From NCBI GenBank assembly GCA_964447875.1, contig CAYUUQ010000001.1, forward strand, positions 1-41,251: a stretch of 41,251 bases of DNA, read 5' to 3'. Below are positions 7,343 to 39,529 of this stretch, piece by piece (positions within the stretch are counted from its first letter, which is position 1; each line of letters starts with the position of its first letter). Source of the stretch: an uncultured Methanosarcinales archaeon. GTDB taxonomy: Archaea; Nanobdellota; Nanobdellia; Woesearchaeales; DATDXC01. The notes below the pieces were generated by a model, which saw nothing but the letters and a program-made list of their open reading frames with translations, did not search any database and was not told where the DNA came from. The translations under genes were made by a program, and so were the position numbers.

Positions 7343-9058
7343 ATGAGGGGTTTTAAAAATCTTTTTAAAATGATATTAGGTATATGGGATGGTCATGACT
7401 CTGGAGCAGCAATCATAAAAGATGGAAAAATAGTTGTTGCTGTCAATGAAGAAAGATTCACAAGAAGAAAATTAGAAGTTTTATTCCCTAAGAACTCAAT
7501 TAGATTCTGTTTAAAGAGCCAAGGATTAAATCCTAATGATATAGAAGATGTTGCATATAGCACTTCAGATTTCTCATTAACATTAACAAGAAGGATTCCT
7601 AAAATAAAAGATGATTATTATTATGTCAGAAGAAGGATAAAAAAAAGTGGGATGGATAATATTAATAGAAAAATACTAAATAGGACAGGTAGATTAAGAT
7701 CAAATTATATTTTTCAACTTATATCTAATAATGTATTAAAAAAAGAATTAAATAAACTAGGATTTAATAATTATAAGTTACATTTGGTTGATCACCATCA
7801 GGCTCATGCTGCTACAGCATATCTGGCTTCTGGTATGAATAAAGCTCTGACAATCACTATGGATGGGCTTGGAGATGGACTATCAGCCACAGTAAATGTA
7901 TGTAATGATGGAGATATAGAGAAATTATATGAAATTGGAACAAAAGATTCTTTGGGCCTTTTTTATCAAGAAATCACTGCTTTATTAGGAATGAGAATAC
8001 TTGAAGATGAAGGAAAAGTAATGTGCCTTGCAGATTACTCTGAAAGGATATCTAAAGAAAAGAATATTATGATGGATTTCTTTAAAATTGAGAAAGGTCT
8101 TATAAAATGTAATATTTCTTTAGGTCGTAGGTTTTCTTTGTTAAAAAATATATTAGAGAATAATAAGAAAGAAGTATTTTGTAGAATGGCTCAAGATGTA
8201 TTAGAACATTATTGCCTAAATTGGTTTAAAGAAATCATTAAAATAACAGGAATGAAGAATGTTTGCTTAGCCGGAGGAATTTTTTCAAATATAAAAAATA
8301 ATATGAATCTTATAGATAATTTAGATATTCATAACTGGTTTATATTTCCCCATATGGGAGATGGTGGATTAGCAGTTGGTGCTGCTTTGTTTGTGAGCAA
8401 TATGAAATATGGTACAAAACCATATGCTCTTGATAATATTAATTTTGGACCAGAGTATACTGAAGAAGATGTAAAAAAGTGTTTATCGAATTATAGAAAA
8501 AAAGTTGATTGTTATAAAATAGATGAACCAGCTAAATTTGCAGCAGAAGAAATAAGTAAATCAAAAATAATCTATTGGTTTAATGGTAAAATGGAATATG
8601 GGCCAAGATCATTAGGTAATAGAAGTATTTTGGCTTTACCTTCAAATATGAACCTAAAAGATGATCTTAATAGGATTATAAAGAGGAGAAGCTTATACCA
8701 ACCTTTCTGTCCATCTATATTAGAAAAAGATGCTAAAGAATTATTAGAACCATTCAAAAAAGCGGATCCTTTTATGACTATGGGATATAAGATAAAAGAA
8801 ATAAAAAGAAATTTTTTGGCAGCTGCTCAGAGTGTGGATGGGTCTTGTAGGCCGCAAATTATACCTTCATCTGATGAGGAATACTCTAAGCTATTACGTA
8901 ATGTTAAGAAAGAAATTGGTATTGGGGCTGTTCTAAATACGAGTTTTAATATACATGGTTATCCTTTGGTTATGAGTCCAGAAAATGCTATAGAAACATT
9001 GTTAAGTGCAAGAGAAGGTAAACTAGTTATGGGGAACTTTTTAGTTGAAATAAAATGA
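7343..9058 (+). CDS. Carbamoyltransferase, NodU/CmcH/TobZ family
   Basis: ILGIWDGHDSGAAIIKDGKIVVAVNEERFTRRK, VDHHQAHAATAY, EYGPRSLGNRSILA and LNTSFNIHGYPLV. The family-typical N-terminus suggests the true start is the ATG at 7370 (MILGIWDG). ATGA overlap with the next gene. Confidence 0.9.
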   Translation: MRGFKNLFKMILGIWDGHDSGAAIIKDGKIVVAVNEERFTRRKLEVLFPKNSIRFCLKSQGLNPNDIEDVAYSTSDFSLTLTRRIPKIKDDYYYVRRRIKKSGMDNINRKILNRTGRLRSNYIFQLISNNVLKKELNKLGFNNYKLHLVDHHQAHAATAYLASGMNKALTITMDGLGDGLSATVNVCNDGDIEKLYEIGTKDSLGLFYQEITALLGMRILEDEGKVMCLADYSERISKEKNIMMDFFKIEKGLIKCNISLGRRFSLLKNILENNKKEVFCRMAQDVLEHYCLNWFKEIIKITGMKNVCLAGGIFSNIKNNMNLIDNLDIHNWFIFPHMGDGGLAVGAALFVSNMKYGTKPYALDNINFGPEYTEEDVKKCLSNYRKKVDCYKIDEPAKFAAEEISKSKIIYWFNGKMEYGPRSLGNRSILALPSNMNLKDDLNRIIKRRSLYQPFCPSILEKDAKELLEPFKKADPFMTMGYKIKEIKRNFLAAAQSVDGSCRPQIIPSSDEEYSKLLRNVKKEIGIGAVLNTSFNIHGYPLVMSPENAIETLLSAREGKLVMGNFLVEIK

Positions 9059-22237: not shown

Positions 22238-23284
22238 TCACCAGTTCATTATTAGATCTATAATTCTTCTAACTTTCATCATAGAATGTGGGAAGATAAA
22301 ACATCTTGAATCGCAATTAAGACAAAAATCAAAATTACCTGTTCTTCTTTTATAATCTAAGAATTTTTTAGACTTGAACACTTTTACAATATCTTTGTTT
22401 TTAATATCTAGTTTATCAACTACATAAGCATCACATGGCAAAGAAATGCAACCATCAGGCAGCAGATTTATAGAATATTTTAACACTTCACATTTTTTAT
22501 TAATGGCATCTTTTTTTTCTAAATGGTCCAAATAAAAACTAGTATTAGATATATTTCGGTATTTTCCCTTTAACTTTTTGACCATATTAACAAAAAAGGT
22601 TGGGTCTATTTTTCTAATATTTTTAGAGCCTTTAGATTGTGGTAATTTTATAGAAATTGGGCAATCGAACATATTAACAGGAGAAAATGTTATTTTACAC
22701 CCTATTTTTTGTGATAGCTTAGCTAATTTTTCCATTTGATCTAGTGAGTCTCTTGTTATTGTTGAGTTTATTGCTACATTAACACCTTTTTTTCTAGCGA
22801 GAATTATATTATTTATAATTTTTTTATATTTATCCTTAGTACCCCGTATTTCATCATGAAAATCCACGGAATCGACCGAAACTCTTAAGATATCTATATT
22901 TTTAATGAATGATTTTTTATTGAGATATTTATCTAACAAAGTTCCGTTTGTATTGATAATGTTAAAAAAACCAGATTTTTTTGAGAAAGTCAAAATTTCA
23001 ACTAAATCATTTCTTAATAATGGTTCACCACCAGTGAGATCAAAAATAGACATTCCTAACTTTGAGAATTGATAAATCAATAATTTGGCCTGGGAAGTAC
23101 TTAGCTCTTTATCTCTAGGAAAATATTTTTCTCCGTATTTATGTATATTACAAAAAGCACATTCCATATTGCACCTATATGTGGGTTTCCACTGAAGTAA
23201 GATTGGGGTAGTAATACCCACCATATTTTTTAAAATAGTGTATAATGTTTTAAAAGTTGATTTTGAAAAAGGCCTTATTATCAA
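22238..23284 (-). CDS. Radical SAM enzyme with Cys-rich C-terminal extension
   Basis: PTYRCNMECAFC (CxxxCxxC), LTGGEPLL, C-terminal CLNCDSRC. The ORF-track start is a TTG in a TTGA overlap with the upstream stop. An alternative ATG lies at 23224. Confidence 0.85.
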   Translation of the reverse strand: MIIRPFSKSTFKTLYTILKNMVGITTPILLQWKPTYRCNMECAFCNIHKYGEKYFPRDKELSTSQAKLLIYQFSKLGMSIFDLTGGEPLLRNDLVEILTFSKKSGFFNIINTNGTLLDKYLNKKSFIKNIDILRVSVDSVDFHDEIRGTKDKYKKIINNIILARKKGVNVAINSTITRDSLDQMEKLAKLSQKIGCKITFSPVNMFDCPISIKLPQSKGSKNIRKIDPTFFVNMVKKLKGKYRNISNTSFYLDHLEKKDAINKKCEVLKYSINLLPDGCISLPCDAYVVDKLDIKNKDIVKVFKSKKFLDYKRRTGNFDFCLNCDSRCFIFPHSMMKVRRIIDLIMNW

Positions 23285-24408
23285 TTTATGTACCTCTTGT
23301 ATTCATTTATTACTGTTGCTAAGTTGGTCATTAAATATTTTAGTGAAAACCTAATTTTTGGTTCAACTTGACAATTATCCCAACATTTTTTACATCTCTG
23401 AAGTTTTTTTCTTACTTTGTTAAATTTTTTAGAGTTCCATATTTCTCTGATACTATGGTCCCTAATATTCCCAGCAATCAATTTACTGCCATAACAAGGA
23501 TAGACATCCCCATAAGAATCCACTTCACAAACAATATTTCCCCCACTACATCCCCCCATTGGAAGATTTTTTCTATAAAAAGAAGGAATGCTGTTAAAAA
23601 ATATTTTTGACATGCTGTTTAGCTTATTTTTCCCCAGATAATTAACCAGACGTTTTAATTCATATTCTAATTGTTTAACTTCTGCCACAGTATTAAAATA
23701 AAGGGAGTTATTTTGCTTTAAATAGTAATTAAGAGGGTATAATTTTTGGATAGGAAGAAAGTTTATTGAACTGACTTTCAGTTTTTTAGCCAAAGAAGCT
23801 AAATCTATTAAATTTTTATAATTTCTCTTATTTATTACACAATTTATAGATATTGAGATTTTTGGATTTATTCTCTGAATTGATTTTATTGCATTCGATG
23901 CTTTATCAAATGCCCCTTTCATCCCCCTTAAAGAATCATGTATATTTGATTTAGGTGAATCTATGGATATTGTAAAATTTTTTAAACCTGAATTTTCAAG
24001 TTTTTGTATATACCTAGGTGTTAATTTAGAGGCATTTGTCGTTAATGCTGTTGGCAGACCAATTTTAGAAGCTTCTTTGATAATCTTTGGTAAAAACTCA
24101 ACTAATGTAGGTTCTCCCCCAGCTATGTGCAATAATTTTACTCCTAGTTTCTTAGAATCATAAATCAATTGTTTTACTTCATAAAAATCTAATTCCCTCT
24201 TTGAACTCTTAATCCTCCACATATCGCAAAATTGACAATGAAAATTACATTTTTTTGTAAGTTCGAGATAAACAAAAAGTGGTGCTTTTGGGGGTTTATT
24301 AAAAAGTAGATTAATGTATGTATTTAGATACAAAAAAAGATTATTTATCCATTGCCTCATTTTTATAGGCAAAGCACATAAATTTATAAATTTATGTATA
24401 ACATCCAT
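23281..24408 (-). CDS. Radical SAM enzyme with SPASM-like C-terminal domain
   Basis: LTKKCNFHCQFC (CxxxCxxC), IAGGEPTL, GGCSGGNIVCEVDSYGDVYPC and CKKCWDNC. The ORF track extends to 24519. That extension overlaps the N-terminus of the divergent pseudogene, so the ATG at 24408 (MDVIHKF) or 24360 is more plausible. Confidence 0.85.
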   Translation of the reverse strand: MDVIHKFINLCALPIKMRQWINNLFLYLNTYINLLFNKPPKAPLFVYLELTKKCNFHCQFCDMWRIKSSKRELDFYEVKQLIYDSKKLGVKLLHIAGGEPTLVEFLPKIIKEASKIGLPTALTTNASKLTPRYIQKLENSGLKNFTISIDSPKSNIHDSLRGMKGAFDKASNAIKSIQRINPKISISINCVINKRNYKNLIDLASLAKKLKVSSINFLPIQKLYPLNYYLKQNNSLYFNTVAEVKQLEYELKRLVNYLGKNKLNSMSKIFFNSIPSFYRKNLPMGGCSGGNIVCEVDSYGDVYPCYGSKLIAGNIRDHSIREIWNSKKFNKVRKKLQRCKKCWDNCQVEPKIRFSLKYLMTNLATVINEYKRYIN

Positions 24409-24454
24409 AATATGAAAGACATTATATTGGTATCTCAAGGTCTTGATTATTTTG

Positions 24455-25807
24455 TTGGAAAATCGAATAAATATAATAATATTGCAGTTTTCAGAAAATC
24501 TGAAGCATACCCCTCCCATTGGGTCTTTGTTATATTGGAAATGCTTTACTCAATGTAAAATATAAGGTAGGCATTATAGATTCTACATTAGAAGATTATA
24601 ATATAGCAAATATTGTAAACAAGATTATACGTGAAAAACCGAAGGTTATCGGTATAAGTGTTTCGAGTTTGTCTCTTCACTGGACATATATATTAATTCG
24701 GTTATTAAGAAAAAAGTGCAAAGCTAAAATTATTTTAGGTGGACCACACATAAGTTATGAACCATATTCATTTAATTACCTTAAAGCAGATTATGGTCTA
24801 AGGGGAGATAGTGAATTTGAATTTTTAAAACTTGTTGATCTTATACTTAGAAATAAAGGAGAAGAAGAAAATATTTCTGGTCTTTTAAGCACGAAAAAAG
24901 TAAAAAATAGTCAAATAAATATTATTGATGATCTTAATTCTATACCGTTACAATCTAGACAGTTATTGGATAATAATAAATATGTTTTCCCCCTTAATAC
25001 TGGAAAAGTTACTACAATAATCACTACAAGAGGTGCCCATTTAATTGTGTTTATTGTATATGTGGAAAAAGCAAATATAGAGAAAGATCTATAAAAAACA
25101 TAATTGAAGAATTGATGATTCTTAACAAAAGATTTGATTATATTGATTTTCAAGATGACTGTTTTACATTTAATAAAGAAAGAGTTAAAAAATTATGTTT
25201 TGAAATGATAAAGCAAAAATTCGTTTTCAAATGGGGTTGTGCAACAAGAATAACTCTTATTGATAAAAAATTATTAAAGATAATGAAAAAAGCTGGTTGT
25301 GAAAATATACGTTTTGGAATTGAATCTGGCTCTAAAAAAATTAGGTGTATGACTGGTAAATCTATTGATTACAATTTATTAGATAAAAACCTTAAGATGG
25401 TAAAAAAAGAGGGTATTCGTTGTGTTGGTTTTTTTATCTTGGGGCTTCCTAAAGAAAAGAAAAAAGATATTAAAATGACTTTATCCATTATAAAAAAATT
25501 AGATTTGGATTATATAGAAGTTGGTTTGCCCTTACCCATAGCTGGTTCTGATCTCTTTAAAATGATGATTAAAGATGGAAAAGTTAAAAAAAGTTATTGG
25601 AAAGATATTTGCCATGGAAAAAGACAGATTGAATATTACATATCCAATAATTTAAGTTTTAATTATCTTAAAAGTATGCAAAATAAGGCGTATCTAACAT
25701 TTTATTTTAGACCAAAGATAATAATCAGTAATTTATTGGAAATCAGATCTTTAAAAGATTTGATTCTTAAGTTTAGTATTGCATATGAAATTCTAAAGAA
25801 TAATTAG
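24455..25807 (+). pseudogene. Class B radical SAM gene disrupted by two frameshifts (ORF-track pieces 24519..25094 and 25112..25807)
   Basis: Frame A (24455-24523) reads (TTG)MENRINIIILQFSENLKHTPPIG. Frame B continues LCYIGNALL...ILGGPHIS...TTRG and stops at 25092-25094. Frame A resumes at 25034 with CPFNCVYC (CxxxCxxC) and runs uninterrupted into the 25112 ORF. The second junction splits TTRG|CPFNCVYC exactly. Confidence 0.75.
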
Positions 25808-29844: not shown

Positions 29845-31494
29845 TTAAACATTTTTCACCAAATAATTACCAATTGCTAAATAATCCAATTTAGCTTCTT
29901 TAAAAGCCGCTATAGCGTCATTAGGGGTACAAACAATGGGTTCTTCGTGTAGATTGAAGATTGTAATTAATATTTAACATTTTCCAGTGATCTTCCTAAA
30001 TTCATCTAAAATCTTATAATATGGTGGATTATCTTCCTTTGACAGTATTTGTGGTCTTGCGGTTCCATCTATATGAGTTACTCCCGGACATTCTTCTTTC
30101 ATTTTTGGCTTACAATCGAAAGATATGTTCATATATTTTGAAGTTAATTTAGCTTTTTTTAGGTCGTAATAATATTTGTCAGCAAATTTTTTGATAGTTG
30201 TTGGTGCAAATGGCATAAAATTGGTTCTTTTTAATTTCTTATTTAACCATATTCTTACAGTATTGTCATCTGGCAGGCAGAGTATAGATCTATTTCCTAA
30301 TGCTCTAGGACCATACTCTAATGCTCCATTAAATCTTGCTATAATTTTTCCTTTTGACAGTAATTCTGCTACTTGATATTCGATATTGGTTAATTTCTCA
30401 TAAAATATCCCTTTTTTATCTAATGTCTTCTTAATCTGCTCGTCTGAAAAATCTGGACCTAGGTAGATTGTGTCCATTGGTGCATGAGGTATTCTTATTC
30501 TTTTATTCAACCAACATAAACCAGCACCCATACTTAAACCGACATCATTCATAGCTGGATGGATGTATACTTGTTTGACTTTATCTAATTGAGATAATCT
30601 TTGATTTAGTTTAACGTTGGAAAATACCCCACCAGATAAAGAAAGATTATTTGATCCATATTCGTCTAAAAGATTAGAGGTATAATCACAAAAAATCTTC
30701 TCGAATAATAACTGTAATGTGTGTGCTACATCTTCTTTCTTAAATGTAGCTAAGAATGATTTTAATTTAGGATAATTATTAAAAAAAGTTCTAGAAAGAA
30801 GGAAGGTGTTTTGTTTATTATCTAGATAAAATATTCTTTTTAATTTTTTAAATAATCTCTTATTGGGTTTACCATAGGCAGCTAGACCTGTTACCTTACC
30901 TACCTCTTTCATTGGATCGAAACCCAATAATTCAGCAATTCCTCCATAAAATAGTCCAGGCGAATTAAGTGGTGACGAAGTTTTAATAATTTTATAGGTA
31001 TTATTTTGACATAATGATGTTGTTGAAGAATGATAATCCCCGACTGCGTCGGCTGTTAAAGTTATTGCTTTATTAAATCCAGAAGTAAAGTATGCATTAC
31101 ATAAGTGGCATTCGTGATGGGGCAATGTTTCTTTAAAAGAGATTGGTATTTTATTTAAAAGTGTATTAACTTCCCTAATTTTATTATTATTAAATAATAT
31201 TTCACTATATTTTACTCTCATATATTCTAAAAAAGTAAAACACGAATCTTTTTTATTTTTTAAGAGCATATTAACAAATCTATGAGGATTATTTTGACTA
31301 GAATATATTGTTCTATGAATATTATATCTTTCCTTTAAAAGTTTAATAGATAAAGAAGGCTTACCTGAGTCCAGCTTCTTTCTAGACAAATTTTCATTTG
31401 CTAAAGAAAATAATATTTTGCCATTAGAATCAAATAATGTGGAGGAGTTATTTTGGCCATCATTTATACTTAATATGTATTTTTTAAAATTCAT
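29845..31494 (-). pseudogene. Carbamoyltransferase (NodU/CmcH family) with an in-frame TAA at 29974-29976
   Basis: LPHHECHLCNAYF, LEYGPRALGNRSILC and FMPFAPT. After ...KITGKC-TAA the same frame continues ILITIFNLHEEPIVCTPNDAIAAFKEAKLDYLAIGNYLVKNV-TAA. This aligns with the C-terminus of the intact paralogue (VLNTSFNIHGYPLVMSPENAIE...GKLVMGNFLVEIK). Confidence 0.85.
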
Positions 31495-31518
31495 TTTATA
31501 ACTTTCAAATAGTTTTAT

Positions 31519-31527
31519 TTTATATAA
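31519..31527 (-). promoter_or_regulatory. TATA-like box (TTATATAAA on minus strand) upstream of the carbamoyltransferase start at 31494
   Basis: Centre lies about 29 nt upstream of the ATG at 31494, inside an 84-nt gap in an otherwise tightly packed minus-strand block. Confidence 0.25.
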
Positions 31528-31578
31528 TTTTCGAAGACACCTTTGCTTAATGAGATATAACCTTCAATAACATCTTAG

Positions 31579-32280
31579 TTAACTATACCTGATTCTAAAG
31601 CGCCAAAGTGAAAGTAATTGTTCGTATGATGTGCTAAAAATATTAAGGCTTGATTTTCCTTTTTCTTCCCAACATAAAGGTAATTCCTTTATGGTGTATT
31701 TCCTCTTTCTTGCCTCTAACATAAACTCAAGATCCCACGGCCAACCATTACTTTTAATTTCTCCATTTATACTAATAAAAATGTCCTTTCTAAATGCCTT
31801 AAGTCCTACATCAGTATCATGAATTCTTAGTTTTGGAAAAATAATCCTGACTAAAGTAATATATATTTTACTTAGCATAGATCTATAAAATTTCCTTTTT
31901 ATTCTTGAATTCGGCATATATCTAGATGCAATAACAATATCATATTTCTTAAGGGTGTGTATCATTTTTTCTATTATCCTTAAATCTATAGTTAAAGGAA
32001 TATCTACGTCCATGAATAGTACCCTAGTTCCTTTAATTGAACTACAGGTTCTTTTTAATGCGTGACCCCTTCCCTTGTTTTTATTATTATTAATAAATTT
32101 TATATTGTTATTTATGTTAGAAAGTTTTTTTATGATATCAAAAGACTTATCTGTTGAACCATCATTTGATAATATTATTTCATTTTTTAAGTTTAATCTC
32201 TTCATGTAATTTACTAAAGTAAGTATATTTTTCTCTAATTTATCTTCCTCATTATAAACAGGAATTACAATCGAAATCAT
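31579..32280 (-). CDS. GT2 family glycosyltransferase, polyprenyl-phosphate sugar synthase-like (DPM1/ArnC-like)
   Basis: ISIVIPVYNEE, LSNDGSTDKS and FMDVDIP. I place the start at the ATG at 32280, which forms an ATGA overlap with the SDR stop and gives the family-typical N-terminus MISIVIPVYNEE. The ORF track extends to 32346. Confidence 0.8.
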   Translation of the reverse strand: MISIVIPVYNEEDKLEKNILTLVNYMKRLNLKNEIILSNDGSTDKSFDIIKKLSNINNNIKFINNNKNKGRGHALKRTCSSIKGTRVLFMDVDIPLTIDLRIIEKMIHTLKKYDIVIASRYMPNSRIKRKFYRSMLSKIYITLVRIIFPKLRIHDTDVGLKAFRKDIFISINGEIKSNGWPWDLEFMLEARKRKYTIKELPLCWEEKGKSSLNIFSTSYEQLLSLWRFRIRYS

Positions 32281-33176
32281 TTTGTATTTTTGTACCAATT
32301 GATATATTTTTTCATTCCTTCTAAGAAAGTTGTTTTTGGTTGCCAATTAAGGTCTATTTTTGCTTTTTCTGAAGATACTGTTTTTCCTTTATAGTCTCCT
32401 TCTCTAGCTTCTTTATGTATTATTTCTACGTCGCCCATGTTAGATTTTATTGTTTCTGCCACTTGTTTTATCGATATTGGTTCAGTTCCATCGAGATTAT
32501 AGATTTTGTTTTTAGCTAACTCATTTAGGGCTAAAACATTTCCTTCTGCTAAATCTTCAACATAAATAAAGTTTCTATATTGTTTTCCGCTGCCATTAAT
32601 TGTTAATGGTTCTTTATTTATTGCCTTTCTTACAAAAATAGGTATAACTGTGGTTTCCCTTGCTCTTGGGCCATAAGGAATACCATATCTTAAAATTGTA
32701 AAATCTTGATCGTATAATTCTTTATAATCATGACAAAATAACTCTCCTGCTATTTTAGTTGAAGTATATATATGTCCTGCTCCAGGCATATGGAAAGGAC
32801 TTTTTTCATCTACGTTTTCTTCTTTTGAACCTGCATAAACCCATACAGTACTTGCAAATATTACTCTTTTAATATTATTTACTCTTGCGGCTTCTAGAAT
32901 ATTTATTGTTCCGGTACTGTTTAAATTAATACATTTTATTGGATCTTTGTATGCTTTGTTTACATTAGAAACAGCTGCTAAGTGATATATAACATCAATA
33001 TTCTTTGTTGCCTCTTTTAATTTATTAAAATCTAGAATATCTCCATTAATATGATTAAGCGGTTGCTTATATGGTTCTGCTAAGTCAAAAGTGGTAACAT
33101 TATGGTTTTCTTCCGCTAGTTTATCTACTACATGGCTTCCTATAAATCCATTTCCACCGGTTACAAGTATATTCAT
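32277..33176 (-). CDS. Extended SDR NAD-dependent sugar-nucleotide epimerase/dehydratase/decarboxylase
   Basis: ILVTGGNGFIGSH (GxxGxxG) and YTSTK (YxxxK). The 299 aa length is typical of UDP-sugar 4-epimerase or UDP-GlcA decarboxylase-like enzymes. Confidence 0.9.
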   Translation of the reverse strand: MNILVTGGNGFIGSHVVDKLAEENHNVTTFDLAEPYKQPLNHINGDILDFNKLKEATKNIDVIYHLAAVSNVNKAYKDPIKCINLNSTGTINILEAARVNNIKRVIFASTVWVYAGSKEENVDEKSPFHMPGAGHIYTSTKIAGELFCHDYKELYDQDFTILRYGIPYGPRARETTVIPIFVRKAINKEPLTINGSGKQYRNFIYVEDLAEGNVLALNELAKNKIYNLDGTEPISIKQVAETIKSNMGDVEIIHKEAREGDYKGKTVSSEKAKIDLNWQPKTTFLEGMKKYINWYKNTK

Positions 33177-34282
33177 TTTAATTCCACCTTTAATGATTTA
33201 ATAACATAATTTATTTCTTCTTCACCCATGCTTGGGTAGATAGGTAAACAAATATGATCGCCACAGTGTTGTTCTGCTGATTGGAAATCTCCTTCCTTAT
33301 AACCTAGATCATCAAAAATTGGTTGTAAATGACATGGTTTTTCATATACTTCGCCAGTTAAGGATATGTTATATTTTTGTTTCATTTTATCTTTCAGTTC
33401 TTTTCTTTTTTTATTTGTTAAAAAGCAAATATATTTGTAATAATTGGATTTATTATTATCATTTATTTTTAATAATTTTAGATTTTGCGTATTTGCTATT
33501 TTTTCATCATATATTTTTGCAATGTCTCTTCTTTCTTTTATTAGATTATCCAATTTACCTAGTTGAGAAAGCCCAACTATGGCGTTTAGTTCACTCATAC
33601 GCCAGTTATATCCTAATTTTGTGTGCGTATTTCCTGGACCAGACATACCTTGATTCCTATAAATCAAAGAATTTTCATATAGCTCTTTGTTGTTTGTTAA
33701 AACAACGCCCCCTTCTGCAGAAGTCATTACTTTTGTTGCAAAAAATGAAAAAGCTGCTGCATCACCAAAAGAACCCGCTTTTTTATCATCTAAAGTAGAA
33801 CCTTGAGCATGAGCAGCATCTTCAATTAGAAAAATTCCTTTATTTTCACATAATTCTTTTATTTGATTTATTTCTGGTGTTACTATACCCCCAATATGGA
33901 CAACAACTACTGCTTTTGTTTTATCTGTTATTTGTTGTTTTATTGTTTTTTCATTAACGCACAAGCTTTTGTCACAGTCTGCAAACTTAACTTTATTTCC
34001 TGAGTGTAAAACTGCTGCAGGTGTTGCAAAAAATGTATTGGTAGGTACGATTATTTCTTCATTTTTGAGGTTTAATGACCTAAATATTATCTCTAAAGCA
34101 GATGTTCCGCTGTTTGTTGCGGTCCCGTATTTGGTGTTAGTGTAAGAAGAAAATTTATCTTCAAATTCTCTGACATATTTACCTAATGATAAAAATCCTG
34201 ATGAGAGAACTTCATCTATTTTATCTTTTATATCTTTTTTTTCTTCTTCTGTGAATATTATTTTTACTGGAGGTATTTTCAT
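33173..34282 (-). CDS. DegT/DnrJ/EryC1/StrS family PLP-dependent sugar aminotransferase (ArnB-like)
   Basis: NSGTSALEI, EDAAHAQGS and SFFATKVMTSAEGG (PLP lysine context). ATGA overlap with the SDR gene. Confidence 0.9.
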   Translation of the reverse strand: MKIPPVKIIFTEEEKKDIKDKIDEVLSSGFLSLGKYVREFEDKFSSYTNTKYGTATNSGTSALEIIFRSLNLKNEEIIVPTNTFFATPAAVLHSGNKVKFADCDKSLCVNEKTIKQQITDKTKAVVVVHIGGIVTPEINQIKELCENKGIFLIEDAAHAQGSTLDDKKAGSFGDAAAFSFFATKVMTSAEGGVVLTNNKELYENSLIYRNQGMSGPGNTHTKLGYNWRMSELNAIVGLSQLGKLDNLIKERRDIAKIYDEKIANTQNLKLLKINDNNKSNYYKYICFLTNKKRKELKDKMKQKYNISLTGEVYEKPCHLQPIFDDLGYKEGDFQSAEQHCGDHICLPIYPSMGEEEINYVIKSLKVELK

Positions 34283-34369
34283 TAAAGAAAGAAAGAAATA
34301 GGGTTACTTATAAATTTATCTGATAGGATAAATATCTATTATAGAATATAGAAAAGGTTATATAAAAAG

Positions 34370-36163
34370 ATGAGTATGGATTATAAGAAGAAAGTGGTTA
34401 AAAAGAATTTAGGAAATTATTTGAGTTTGACTTTTATATTAGTTATATCATTCTTATTCACAATTCCTTTATTAGAAAATATAAACAATGATATGTATGA
34501 TGAGGATTGGTTTCAATTTTCATCGCATAATCTGAATTCTAGAAAATCTATAATTGAATATAAACAACTTCCTTTGTGGTCCCCTTTCTTGGGGGGTGGA
34601 TTTCCAATAATTGGACATCCCCAAGATATGACACTTAGTCCATTATTTCTTTTCATATTAATATTTGGTGAAACAGTTGGATTAAAACTGATAATAATTC
34701 TTATTTACTTGTCAAGTGCGTTAGGAACATATCTTTTCAGTAAAAAGGTATTGTGCTTCTCTCAATTAACAAGTTCATTTGTTGCTCTCTCTTTTGTTTT
34801 AAGTAGTTATTTACCATATCAACTTTCTGATGGTAACTTTCATTGTGAACCATTTCTTTTATTGTTGCCCCTATTGCTTTACTTATATGAAAAATCAATT
34901 AATAACAAAAAATTTATTTTTTTCAGTGCATTTTTATTGGCTATAATGTTATTTTCTGGGGCTTTTGCTTTTTTATACATATTTCTTGCTTTCTTCATGT
35001 ACTGTCTTTTCAGTCAAATATTTTGTGCAAAAAAAAAGTACTTCAAAACGTTTTGTATTATCTTTATTTCCTTATTATTTATTGGATCAATAAAGATTCT
35101 GCCTACTTTGGAAATATTATCAAATAAAGGCGCCTGTATGAGTGACCCTTTAGATTCAAATCCCCATGCAAGTACGATTTGCAAAGAGAATATAAACACG
35201 GTGCCCCCCAACTACCTAAGTTATTCTAATCTTGTAAACTCTTATTTATCAAAAAGTTTTCCTTATCATTCTACTACTTACACCGGAATAATTCCAATAA
35301 CATTTTTTATTTTAGGATTATTTTTTATAAGAAAGAATATAATAAAATTTCTATTGTTATTTTTGTTATTTTTGTTATTACTTCTAGGAAATAATTTTGT
35401 GATCAATATTCATCATCTTTTTTCATATATCCCATTATATAATTTAGTAATTAAATTGAACAAATATATTCCCCCAATAATATTATTTTTCTTTTGTATT
35501 ATTTCAGGAAATTTTTTAAATAAAATATATTTAAAAATAAAAAATAAAAAATTATTGATTTCATTAATAACCTTACTAGTTTTATCTTCTATATTTTGGC
35601 AGTTTTATTCAAATATTGGGACACAATCTAATCTTTTTATATACCCTAAACAAAAAGTAAACCTTAAAAATAATTTTTATCAAACACGTATAATTACTAC
35701 TTCAAGAGTAAACATAGAAACATCAAAAAATCAATATTATAATATTAGAAAAGGTATTGGAACAATTAATTGGTATAGTAGCATAATATTAGATGAAAAC
35801 ACGATACCCAAATATTTTGTTTATAAAAATAGTAGTTTAATGGAAAACCAGAAATATTTAGGTGAAGTTTACTTTATAAATAGAAAAAATAAGGCGTATA
35901 TGAAATATTTTAGTCCGAATAAGATGATTATTGATGTAAAAATATCAAAACCCGATACATTGATTATAAATCAAAATTATAATAAATATTGGAAAACCGA
36001 TTGTGGAAAATTGTTTGATAAGGGGGGATTATTAGCAATTGAAATGGATACGCAATGTAAATCAGTGAAAATATGGTTTACCCCTGTATTGTTTTTTATA
36101 GGGTTGGGAATCAGCCTAGTTACTTTAGTTATATACATTATTTTCATTATTAAAAAAGAATAA
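34370..36163 (+). CDS. Polytopic membrane protein, GT-C-like (YfhO-like topology) with extracytoplasmic domain and C-terminal TM anchor
   Basis: 597 aa. Acidic first loop NDMYDEDWFQF, then LPLWSPFLGGGFPIIGHPQ and about 12 helices. A soluble domain of about 170 aa precedes a final helix VLFFIGLGISLVTLVIYIIFII. The family call is by pattern only. Confidence 0.45.
   Translation: MSMDYKKKVVKKNLGNYLSLTFILVISFLFTIPLLENINNDMYDEDWFQFSSHNLNSRKSIIEYKQLPLWSPFLGGGFPIIGHPQDMTLSPLFLFILIFGETVGLKLIIILIYLSSALGTYLFSKKVLCFSQLTSSFVALSFVLSSYLPYQLSDGNFHCEPFLLLLPLLLYLYEKSINNKKFIFFSAFLLAIMLFSGAFAFLYIFLAFFMYCLFSQIFCAKKKYFKTFCIIFISLLFIGSIKILPTLEILSNKGACMSDPLDSNPHASTICKENINTVPPNYLSYSNLVNSYLSKSFPYHSTTYTGIIPITFFILGLFFIRKNIIKFLLLFLLFLLLLLGNNFVINIHHLFSYIPLYNLVIKLNKYIPPIILFFFCIISGNFLNKIYLKIKNKKLLISLITLLVLSSIFWQFYSNIGTQSNLFIYPKQKVNLKNNFYQTRIITTSRVNIETSKNQYYNIRKGIGTINWYSSIILDENTIPKYFVYKNSSLMENQKYLGEVYFINRKNKAYMKYFSPNKMIIDVKISKPDTLIINQNYNKYWKTDCGKLFDKGGLLAIEMDTQCKSVKIWFTPVLFFIGLGISLVTLVIYIIFIIKKE
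35353..35379 (+). repeat. In-frame 9-bp tandem repeat (TTGTTATTT x2 + TTGTTATTA) inside the membrane protein gene
   Basis: Read directly at 35353-35361, 35362-35370 and 35371-35379. It encodes LLF-LLF-LLL within a TM helix. Confidence 0.85.
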
Positions 36164-36165
36164 AC

Positions 36166-36918
36166 TCAATACAAAGATAAGTTGGGTTTAGCTTTTTGAT
36201 ATTCTTTATATGCTTTTATCCATGTCTTTGACATCATTTCTTTAGTTATCCTCTTATCATTATTAAAGTTTCTTTTAAAATGCCCGCAAAAACGACATAG
36301 TAATCTTAATTGACTTTTTAATGTTTGTTGATTTACTAATGAAAGTCTCTTTATAGCTATATCAAAACCAAATACTCTATCAAGGCTAGCCCCTGCACCA
36401 CATGGATAATAACCATATCTAGTCAGCCCCAATCCACATTCTTGAGTTGTCTTACAACCTCTAGTGAAATCTGCGTTCTTATATTCTTTTATATCAATTG
36501 GTGATATGTTATAACTAAAAAACTTATTTTTAATAGAAGTTTTATATGAATTTCTAATATTCACCCAACTTGGTAATTTGGATAAAATTTTATTAACTTT
36601 TCTACCATACCCATTTGTTACAAGTTCTATAATACAATTCTGTTTTATGTCCCTATATCTTTTTAAGATCCTTAGGATATCAAAAATATGTGGATGTAAA
36701 GTTGGTTCGCCACCAAGTAATCCTATATATTTCCAATTCCAATTTTATTCGATAGATTCATTTACGAACTTAATAATTTGGTTGAGCGTCATCTGTTCAT
36801 TAGATGCGGCTTGTCTAACTGATCTATTACAATTAAAACAACATAAATTGCAAAAGGTAGTTATTTCAATTTCTATCTTTTTCATATTTGGAATCCATGA
36901 TCTTTTCTTATTAGACAT
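36166..36918 (-). pseudogene. Small radical SAM gene with an in-frame TAA at 36745-36747
   Basis: Hand translation from the ATG at 36918 gives MSNKKRSWIPNMKKIEIEITTFCNLCCFNCNR...FVNESIE-TAA-NWNWKYIGLLGGEPTLHPH... This runs in the same frame into the ORF-track piece 36166..36564. The stop separates the CxxxCxxC motif from the GGEP motif. Confidence 0.8.
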
Positions 36919-36961
36919 TTTATATTAAATATCAACTTATTCTAAATCTTATTTTTCAATA

Positions 36962-38674
36962 TCATTTTATTGAATTTTTACTTATTTCAAAAAAATCTTT
37001 ACACATATCGCAATACTCAAAATTTTTACTCTTAACCTTTCTTCTTACAGAAATGGCTTCACTAGAATAATATATATCATGCAGATTTTTCTCAAATATA
37101 TTTCCTATTTTAGCTTCAAGAATAGTTAATGTTCCACAACATGGAAAAACATCACCATTTGGCATTATATCAAGGGTATAATTAGGAACAACACACGGAA
37201 CTTTTTTGTGGAATATTTTACCATATTTTCCTTCTGAAAAATTCTCTAATTCTTCTAAAAATTCATTATTTTTTGATTTATTTATAATAAAAATTTTTGA
37301 TTTCCCAACTAAATCAAAAAAGAAAGGATTGAATGAAATGTTTATTTTTAATTTTTCACTTAGCATGTTAGGAATAATTTTTAAATAAAATTCTTTCATT
37401 TGAACTTTATTCAGCCTTAAATTTGATTTGGATATTACCTTATTTTTTGAATTTTGACTTAAGCAATCAACTTGAGAAAAATAAAGATTATCAACCCCTA
37501 ATCTATCCAAAATTATCGGAAGATCGGATATATGATCATAATTTATTTTTGTAATAACGCAATTTACACCAACTCTTATTTCAGGATTCGATATCTTTAT
37601 TTTTTGTATAAACTCAGTTATTTTATCGAAACTATCGACTCCTGTTATTTTTTTTTGAATATCTTTATCATCTGAGTGTAATGTTAACATAACTTCATCT
37701 AGTAACTTTGAATATTTTATTACTTCGTTATTATTTAAAACTGCATTGGTGGCATATTCTATTTTAAATCCTAATAATTTAGAAAATTCAAAAACTTCTA
37801 TTAGGTTATGATATAAACTAGCTTCTCCACCTGTTATCTTGATATGATTAAAATCTAACACAAATGCTTCAAATAAAATGTTTTTTACTTTTTCAAGAGG
37901 TAAACTAGATTTATTTTCTTGATTCCACCAATCACATATTATACATCTTGAATTACATTTGTCTGTTAACCTTAGGTAAATTGATTTTGTTGGATAATCT
38001 GAAATTGGTTTTGCTATTGAAATAAACTTACTCTTACCATCAAACAACCTAACATCAACCTCTTGTTTTAATTCCCTTAAATTTCTTATACCCTTAACTG
38101 TTTGTTCAAAACTTCCTGGAACTTTAGTTATCTTATCATGTTCTTCAGAGGTTTTACCAAATATATTAATTATAAACTTATTTGCACCAGCATCGATTAT
38201 TTTTTTACAATATTCTAAGTTTGAAAATGCTCTTCCGTTTGATTCTATTGTTATGTATTTATAATCTAACTGTTTTGCATAATCTATTAAAACATCTAAA
38301 TTATCTCTTAATGTTGATTCTCCACCTGTGAAAATTACTTCTTCTCTGAAATAGGATTCTTTGTTATCATTTTTCCATTCTTGAAGTTGATTAAAAACAA
38401 CTTCTTTTCTTTTTCTATCTCCGCCCTTACCTATCTGAAAACAAAAAGAACAATTATTATTGCATTGATGAAAAATTGGTATCTTTAATGGTGTTTTTAG
38501 TTCTTCAAGTATTAATTTAGGAGTGAGATTAGAATTAAATGTCATTTCTAGTTCTGAAAAATTGTTTTTCATCATTGATAATTTTTCTTTTGAATTATTT
38601 AATTCTTTTATTAGATTGGTTAATTGAACAATATCTAGATTGGCTATTGATTTAGAAACGCCTTTATCTACCAA
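36962..38674 (-). CDS. Tandem di-domain radical SAM protein (two complete rSAM cores)
   Basis: Core 1 has CNNNCSFC (38441-38464, verified on DNA) plus FTGGES. Core 2 has CNSRCIIC (37934-37957, verified) plus ITGGEA, then CVVPNYTLDIMPNGDVFPCC and CDMC. The ORF-track start is a TTG. The first ATGs are at codons 34/35. The frame is continuous with the upstream GT-B gene. Confidence 0.85.
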   Translation of the reverse strand: MVDKGVSKSIANLDIVQLTNLIKELNNSKEKLSMMKNNFSELEMTFNSNLTPKLILEELKTPLKIPIFHQCNNNCSFCFQIGKGGDRKRKEVVFNQLQEWKNDNKESYFREEVIFTGGESTLRDNLDVLIDYAKQLDYKYITIESNGRAFSNLEYCKKIIDAGANKFIINIFGKTSEEHDKITKVPGSFEQTVKGIRNLRELKQEVDVRLFDGKSKFISIAKPISDYPTKSIYLRLTDKCNSRCIICDWWNQENKSSLPLEKVKNILFEAFVLDFNHIKITGGEASLYHNLIEVFEFSKLLGFKIEYATNAVLNNNEVIKYSKLLDEVMLTLHSDDKDIQKKITGVDSFDKITEFIQKIKISNPEIRVGVNCVITKINYDHISDLPIILDRLGVDNLYFSQVDCLSQNSKNKVISKSNLRLNKVQMKEFYLKIIPNMLSEKLKINISFNPFFFDLVGKSKIFIINKSKNNEFLEELENFSEGKYGKIFHKKVPCVVPNYTLDIMPNGDVFPCCGTLTILEAKIGNIFEKNLHDIYYSSEAISVRRKVKSKNFEYCDMCKDFFEISKNSIK

Positions 38675-38704
38675 TAGATTGGTTCTTTCTAATTGATCAT
38701 CATA

Positions 38705-39529
38705 TTATTTAACCAAAGCGTAAAGTAAAGATGTGGTTTTTGTATAAATAAAATCATTTATAGTGTTATACCCTACTTGAGAGATTACTAAATCTGCGCA
38801 ATTCATTAATTCTAAAAAATTCTGTTCAAATTTAACAACTGAATCATTAGGTATTTTATTATATGGTCCAGAAATTATTATAAAATTAATGTTTTCGTTT
38901 GTTAGTTTTTCTTTTAATTTTAGAATTAAATCAAAATATTCTTTTGATTTTTTATCTCCTCCGCCGCCTGCAGATGCTAAGATAACTAATTGATTGTTAA
39001 TTATTTTATATTTTTTAGAAACATCTGAATTAATCTTTAATTTTCTAACTAATGGCCCTATAAATTTTATTTTTTCTGAATTTGATAATGATTCTAATAT
39101 TTTTGGTGGTACAGAATATCCTTTAAACTCATCAATAGAATGGGGCAATAAAATTAAATCAATATGTTCGTAATCTGAACTTTTTATGAATTTATCGATA
39201 AGATTGTTTTTATATTTTCTAAAAACAAATATATGTTTTAAAGGGAAATTAAATGTTGTACCTAAAATACCTGTATTGTAACTAGCATCCCAAATTATAG
39301 CGTTTGGTTTATAATCTGTAATTATATTATATATTTCTTCATAATAGTTCTTTTTCTCAATCTTAAAATAGGTATATCCTTTTTGATCTAACCAATAATT
39401 GAATTTAGAATTAGTCATAAATGCTATATCTAAGTGAGGCATTGCTTTTTTTAACATGTCTGCAATTATTATGCTTCTATTTAAATGACCTAGTCCTTCA
39501 CCATTTACAACATAAAATAATATTTTCAT
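38705..39529 (-). CDS. GT-B fold glycosyltransferase (GT28/GT1, MurG/MJ1255-like), apparently truncated by a TAA at 38705-38707
   Basis: MKILFYVVNGEGLGHLNRS (G-x-GH-x-x-R), LASAGGGGDK and ADLVISQVGYNT. The ORF ends about 55 aa short of the family norm. Beyond the TAA, YDDQLERTNLLVDKGVSKSIANLDIVQLTNLIKEL continues the GT28-type C-terminal pattern in the same frame. Confidence 0.65.
   Translation of the reverse strand: MKILFYVVNGEGLGHLNRSIIIADMLKKAMPHLDIAFMTNSKFNYWLDQKGYTYFKIEKKNYYEEIYNIITDYKPNAIIWDASYNTGILGTTFNFPLKHIFVFRKYKNNLIDKFIKSSDYEHIDLILLPHSIDEFKGYSVPPKILESLSNSEKIKFIGPLVRKLKINSDVSKKYKIINNQLVILASAGGGGDKKSKEYFDLILKLKEKLTNENINFIIISGPYNKIPNDSVVKFEQNFLELMNCADLVISQVGYNTINDFIYTKTTSLLYALVK

Follow-up and report, generated by a model that had tools for sequence, protein, structure and literature searches.

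Three in-frame TAA codons in glycan-tailoring genes of an archaeal metagenome-assembled genome are probably local assembly or consensus errors

Stop codons that fall inside conserved genes have more than one precedent. Recoding is known for TGA, which is read as Trp or Gly (translation tables 4 and 25), and for TAG, which specifies pyrrolysine in some archaea. Populations often lose surface-glycan genes, and diversity-generating retroelements occur in DPANN archaea. A technical precedent comes from Chen et al. (2020), who described local assembly errors in scaffolds of metagenome-assembled genomes (MAGs) as places where the consensus lacks perfect support from even one read and encodes wrong proteins, and who counted 13 such errors in a genome of 1.13 Mb (PMC7111523). 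Here we analyze three TAA codons (29974, 36745 and 38705, all on the minus strand) that interrupt a carbamoyltransferase gene, a radical SAM gene and a glycosyltransferase (GT)/radical SAM fusion gene in an uncultured archaeon. The genes lie on the 41,251-bp contig CAYUUQ010000001.1, referred to here as the window, meaning the whole stretch of DNA that was analyzed. Near-identical assemblies encode intact forms of all three genes, and the stops are probably local assembly or consensus errors in this MAG.

Intact forms of the three interrupted genes

Each of the three TAA codons links two open stretches in one frame, and a single Pfam domain spans each stop when the codon is read through as X (Table 1), which bears out the initial annotation that conserved sequence lies on both sides of every interruption. 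Its observation that the window holds no TGA or TAG interruptions also stands. Four further single-stop candidates occur there, and in none of them does a domain extend over the stop codon. All three TAA stops are thus confirmed as genuinely present in this draft sequence.

An intact 549-aa form of the carbamoyltransferase, P0256, is encoded in JGI and ENA assemblies, the longest contig listed as its carrier being one of 122,746 bp from JGI. Read through the stop, the window gene shares 545 of 549 residues with P0256, and the four differences (residues 507, 508, 510 and 512) make up patch 1, where the window reads stop-I-L-I-T-I and the intact form S-L-L-N-T-S. Asn510 and Ser512 are part of an NTSFN motif and are invariant in 119 of 119 homologues; P0256 keeps this motif, whereas the window has Ile at both positions and reads ITIFN. 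A relative from the same family, G003, likewise carries NTSFN and has a sense codon at site 1.

The radical SAM gene has an intact 250-aa counterpart, P0130, which is found on three JGI and ENA contigs (the 122,746-bp contig is the longest listed) and differs from the window gene at residue 58 only. The column at this site holds Leu in 96 of 119 homologues, and a one-base change can lead from Leu to TAA by a single route, from TTA. For the fusion gene there are two intact 855-aa forms, P0253 from JGI, whose longest listed carrier is the same 122,746-bp contig, and P0121 from ENA (99% identical). The window gene differs from P0253 at 10 of 855 residues, all within residues 208-280 and nine of them within 259-280. 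At these ten places P0122, a 58%-identical protein of 501 aa, matches the intact allele in seven cases and the window allele in none. P0122 likewise joins a GT to a radical SAM domain, so the fusion itself is conserved. Because the window has Ile at two invariant carbamoyltransferase positions and finds no agreement with P0122 in the fusion gene, the window allele is the derived, damaged one.

Beyond the interrupted genes, 10 of 11 other window open reading frames (ORFs) that were looked up (454, 477, 299, 369, 597, 379, 230, 483, 571 and 544 aa; 4,403 aa together) were found letter for letter, with the 122,746-bp contig again the longest listed carrier; the eleventh is absent from the protein collection, and the start chosen for it is possibly wrong. 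The fragments produced by the stops (506, 57, 132, 274 and 570 aa), on the other hand, are listed only from the NCBI/ENA record of the 41,251-bp contig. Intact alleles were compared as proteins only, a level at which synonymous differences are invisible. DNA-level searches of metagenome contigs and viral contigs gave no match, and near-identical records may be excluded there. Window and intact forms together have 6,042 identical residues and 15 different ones. These 15 are confined to patches of 6, 1 and 73 codons, with none in the other 1,639 codons of the three genes. As judged from these protein comparisons, the three TAA codons are private to this MAG contig, and assemblies of 99-100% identity encode intact genes. 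At the three sites the population sequence in the other assemblies encodes Ser, Leu and Glu, and TCA, TTA and GAA are the inferred sources of the TAA codons.

The kinds of change were also unusual. Each of the 15 differences is reachable by one base change, and at least 14 of the inferred changes are transversions whatever synonymous codon is assumed. G to T, C to A, A to T and T to A all occur, together with one C to G, and 14 of the 15 changes end in A or T. Such a mutation spectrum is unnatural.

Recoding, decay and consensus error

Like the stops of reassigned or programmed-readthrough genes, the three TAA codons lie in frame at conserved positions of real genes. The likeness ends there: TAA is the main terminator, the sites call for three different residues, the stops are not shared between assemblies and no matching tRNA was found among those predicted. 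TAA ends 19 of the 38 window ORFs of at least 90 aa, in keeping with the initial description of TAA as a normal terminator in the window, and 871 of the 1,467 genome ORFs of at least 100 aa. A TAA reassigned to an amino acid, in the organism or on the contig alone, would have to stand for Ser, Leu and Glu at once. ARAGORN predicted 7 intron-less tRNAs and 22 with introns allowed; none of the 22 has the anticodon TTA, in a partial set from a MAG that is 79% complete. Several of the 22 have implausible introns, and the tRNA set of the MAG is far from complete. The search for suppressor tRNA genes that had been proposed for this locus was thereby run and returned none from this incomplete set. 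Reassignment is extremely improbable on these grounds, and its rejection in the initial annotation is upheld.

Readthrough of TAA in particular contexts, used as regulation, had been put forward as well, and it would agree with the three window stops all being TAA and all being in frame. However, the stops are absent from near-identical assemblies and, at site 1, from a genome of the same family, the flanking changes destroy residues that are otherwise invariant (the Asn and Ser of the NTSFN motif), and lesions of the same kind elsewhere in the genome use TGA and TAG too. With stops that are not conserved even within the population and with invariant residues lost, regulated readthrough is not supported, and we consider it very unlikely.

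A gradual loss of redundant paralogues, driven by AT-biased mutation where selection is relaxed, was another explanation offered earlier, and the direction of change agrees with it, given that 14 of 15 changes run to A or T. The window is also rich in paralogues, with 17 of the 44 radical SAM domain matches of the MAG and a second carbamoyltransferase, and contains one frameshift pseudogene, probably a true one, that another assembly shares. The process itself fares worse. Gradual decay would scatter changes, and their packing into 6, 1 and 73 codons contradicts it, next to 6,042 identical residues, no change in the remaining codons of the three genes, and intact alleles that exist at 99-100% identity. 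We judge gradual decay to have hardly any chance of being the cause.

Local assembly or consensus errors in this MAG are the probable source of the three TAA codons and, as biology, the stops are most likely not a real feature. The consensus would have been wrongly built over three short segments, each coding for conserved motifs of an enzyme. As a technical cause, conserved-motif DNA common to paralogues and to related genomes in the sample may have caused the assembly graph to branch, or left parts of it thinly supported, and the assembler would then have resolved these places wrongly. Such a cause fits the share of radical SAM matches on this contig and the short JGI contigs that carry pyrG (see below). 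It also fits the only long DNA match to relatives: four other same-family genomes match at the DNA level only at the 3′ end of the carbamoyltransferase gene (69% identity), which is the stretch that holds site 1. Of the explanations listed in the initial annotation, the consensus artefact from a mixed population is thus the one we favor, given sense codons at all three sites in assemblies of 99-100% identity.

Comparison with the errors described by Chen et al. is instructive. In both cases a short wrong consensus would sit in an otherwise correct scaffold and leave truncated or wrong proteins in public databases; the density is similar (PMC7111523), and the assembly studied here was scaffolded with N gaps, as its 27 N runs indicate. 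Near-pure transversions and a location in conserved motifs are features of the changes seen here and do not belong to that description (PMC7111523). Coverage troughs in AT-rich DNA were considered as a separate cause and rejected: local G+C around the three sites ranks between the 17th and 94th percentile in windows of 100-500 nt, and between the 27th and 74th in a 60-nt window, which places none of them in a trough.

The stops matter mainly as a caution. In the public record of this MAG, three enzymes that are intact in other assemblies appear as fragments, and radA and pyrG are broken as well. Any inference of pseudogenization, genome decay or odd decoding in DPANN-like archaea that is drawn from this assembly would be misled, and the intact forms from other assemblies are the ones to use.

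Lesions elsewhere in the genome and the case for a real haplotype

The genome was screened for further interrupted genes, a candidate being a single stop with an ORF of at least 50 aa upstream and 40 or more open codons after it. Of the 251 candidates in the genome, Pfam screening covered 184 on contigs C2-C105 and all 7 in the window, with 60 on 47 smaller contigs outside the screen. A domain runs across the stop in six candidates on C2-C105, and hef adds a seventh case (Table 1). For radA, an intact 364-aa form, P0284, is found on three contigs from JGI and ENA, the longest of 153,091 bp, and differs only by the change from GAA to TAA. In pyrG, which has one match in the genome, a change from GGA to TGA removes a Gly that is present in 4 of 4 family relatives, and another odd pair of residues follows 43 codons further on; the JGI gene calls for its N- and C-terminal parts sit on contigs of 965 and 1,777 bp. 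The same MAG thus breaks the indispensable single-copy genes radA and pyrG by the same kind of G-to-T change. Two findings therefore point to assembly error: other assemblies are without the lesion, and two single-copy genes of this MAG, radA and pyrG, have been hit in the same way. Besides TAA, the lesion class includes TGA and TAG, which occur among the seven cases. One TGA stands apart. The 72-aa upstream fragment of the PF20603 hydrolase is also present in JGI gene calls (two contigs, the longer of 70,030 bp), so this TGA is shared between assemblies and real; it could mark a genuinely split gene, a pseudogene or a site of recoding.

Several observations weigh against an assembly error in the window. 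The rate of disruption there is indeed high, as the initial annotation had remarked, and the locus differs in this from the rest of the genome: three stops in 41 kb compare with seven in the 1.04 Mb of C2-C105, an enrichment of about 11-fold (Poisson P of about 0.003 for at least three stops in the window at the background rate). Common assemblers need to see a word at least twice, so a patch of nine changes would be hard to obtain from one bad read. Logan contigs list no form, broken or intact, of any of the three genes, yet they list 8 of the 10 other ORFs that were found, a pattern that would fit mixed alleles in the reads. Finally, two of the other assemblies have private changes beside the same patches: P0121 carries I202N and D288Y beside patch 3, and P0251 carries N61K, Y64F and H75A beside site 2, the last at a position where His is kept in 118 of 119 homologues. 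These private changes are non-conservative and of the transversion type, and they hint at real local variability or at a common cause.

The same observations bear on the most serious alternative, in which the patches are real and belong to a minority or sample-specific haplotype, with three glycan-tailoring genes knocked out by one multi-base event each, that the consensus happened to pick. The clustering of private changes in P0121 and P0251, the enrichment of stops in this glycan cluster and the missing full-length forms in Logan all count for such a haplotype, as does the tendency of populations to lose surface-glycan genes. It would also resemble private nonsense alleles and collapsed loss-of-function variants, in that the stop occurs in one assembly and others of the same population are intact. 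In contrast to single-base private nonsense alleles, however, two of the three stops are accompanied by other substitutions, in clusters of 4 and 9-10, and the damage extends to essential genes: a living lineage should not lose radA and pyrG. The spectrum is almost purely transversions, all other compared residues are identical, and the patches have no donor or template in the MAG, where a search for repeats or donors found none longer than 21 nt. We regard a real broken haplotype as possible, though distinctly less likely than local errors of assembly or consensus.

A bolder variant would make the patches products of local, untemplated, transversion-biased hypermutation, directed at catalytic-motif DNA of surface-glycan enzymes in a subpopulation. 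We think this improbable. It is similarly doubtful that glycan tailoring is turned off cell by cell in this manner, with the private changes of P0121 and P0251 as further products. If true, clustered hypermutation would add a new means of diversifying surface glycans in archaea.

Two known mutational mechanisms were considered for the patches and set aside. The targets of diversity-generating retroelements likewise show many substitutions in a short stretch of an otherwise identical gene, but the three genes here are unrelated in sequence and the changes create stops. There is no match to reverse transcriptase (PF00078) in the incomplete MAG and no template repeat, and the changes are not adenine-specific but fall on all four bases. 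Support for template switching at a quasi-palindrome was too weak to retain it. An inverted repeat over patch 3 pairs at 15 of 19 positions in the window allele, compared with 12-14 of 19 in the inferred intact allele, but site 1 has no such hairpin and no donor was found elsewhere.

Genomic setting and neighboring genes

The window is contig C1 of MAG G000, an assembly of 213 contigs and 1.48 Mb. It is the longest of these contigs, and its G+C of 26.7% is the lowest among them (median 31.3%); the low G+C, together with its richness in radical SAM genes, fits a flexible glycan island. Pfam matches elsewhere in the MAG are archaeal (histone, ribosomal proteins S27e, L24e and L34e, aIF5A, RadA, Hef, Top6A and OapB/OapC), and for two window genes the closest named homologues come from Woesearchaeota and Nanoarchaeota records. 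At the contig level, window DNA is represented in seven DNA sequencing runs from two studies; no RNA run is listed.

Table 1. Positions of the interrupted genes, their altered patches and other features of the window and the genome. Entries without a contig label are window positions; residues are those of the read-through product.
Feature	Position	Strand	Details
Carbamoyltransferase gene (NodU/CmcH type)	29848..31494	-	549 codons read through; Pfam Carbam_trans_N and Carbam_trans_C
Carbam_trans_C domain	residues 376-547		spans X507; E 2e-54
Patch 1	29959..29976	-	four of six codons changed, TAA at 29974-29976 among them
Radical SAM gene	36169..36918	-	250 codons read through TAA; Pfam Radical_SAM across stop
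Radical_SAM domain	residues 17-119		spans X58; E 5e-10
Site 2	36745..36747	-	TAA; Leu in intact form
GT28-like glycosyltransferase, two radical SAM and SPASM fusion gene	36965..39529	-	855 codons; Pfam
Glyco_tran_28_C domain	residues 190-324		spans X275; E 1e-8
Patch 3	38690..38755	-	nine changed codons within 22; TAA at 38705-38707, GAA (Glu) in intact form
Outlying tenth change of patch 3	38906..38908	-	Lys in window, Asn in both intact forms
Second carbamoyltransferase	7343-9055		
Window gene with other form P0286	20513-22144		
Eleventh ORF looked up	23284-24519		
B12-binding radical SAM gene	24519..25807	+	split by one-base frameshift near 25033
Window gene with other form P0258	25819-27180		
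pyrG	C16:8436		TGA; domain across stop
radA	C23:1238		TAA; domain across stop
PF20603 hydrolase (locus L033)	C28:8286		TGA; domain across stop
LamG giant surface protein	C29:3851		TAG; about 2,600 codons; domain across stop
Nucleoside-transporter gene	C70:1948		TAA, six codons after N gap; domain across stop
hef	C90:4099		TAA between ERCC4 and HhH domains of one gene
NMT1 protein	C95:324		TAA; domain across stop

The initial annotation had counted four disrupted genes in the window. The fourth, a B12-binding radical SAM gene, does exist, but it is disrupted by a shared frameshift, unlike the assembly-private TAA stops. Direct reading of the sequence places the loss of one base between the Gly codon and the first Cys codon of the CxxxCxxC motif, which puts Radical_SAM in the frame following that of the B12-binding domain. 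Gene calls from JGI, Logan and ENA contain an exact copy of the 230-aa downstream product (two contigs, the longer of 122,746 bp). Since this product is unchanged in other assemblies, the frameshift is shared and the gene is probably a true pseudogene; the lesion is probably real and of another kind than the three TAA stops.

Two further window genes have other forms that diverge at the C terminus. P0258 matches its window counterpart exactly and then diverges fully from residue 386, and P0286 does the same from residue 478. Their sequences suggest that those other assemblies, too, contain frameshifts or chimeric joins.

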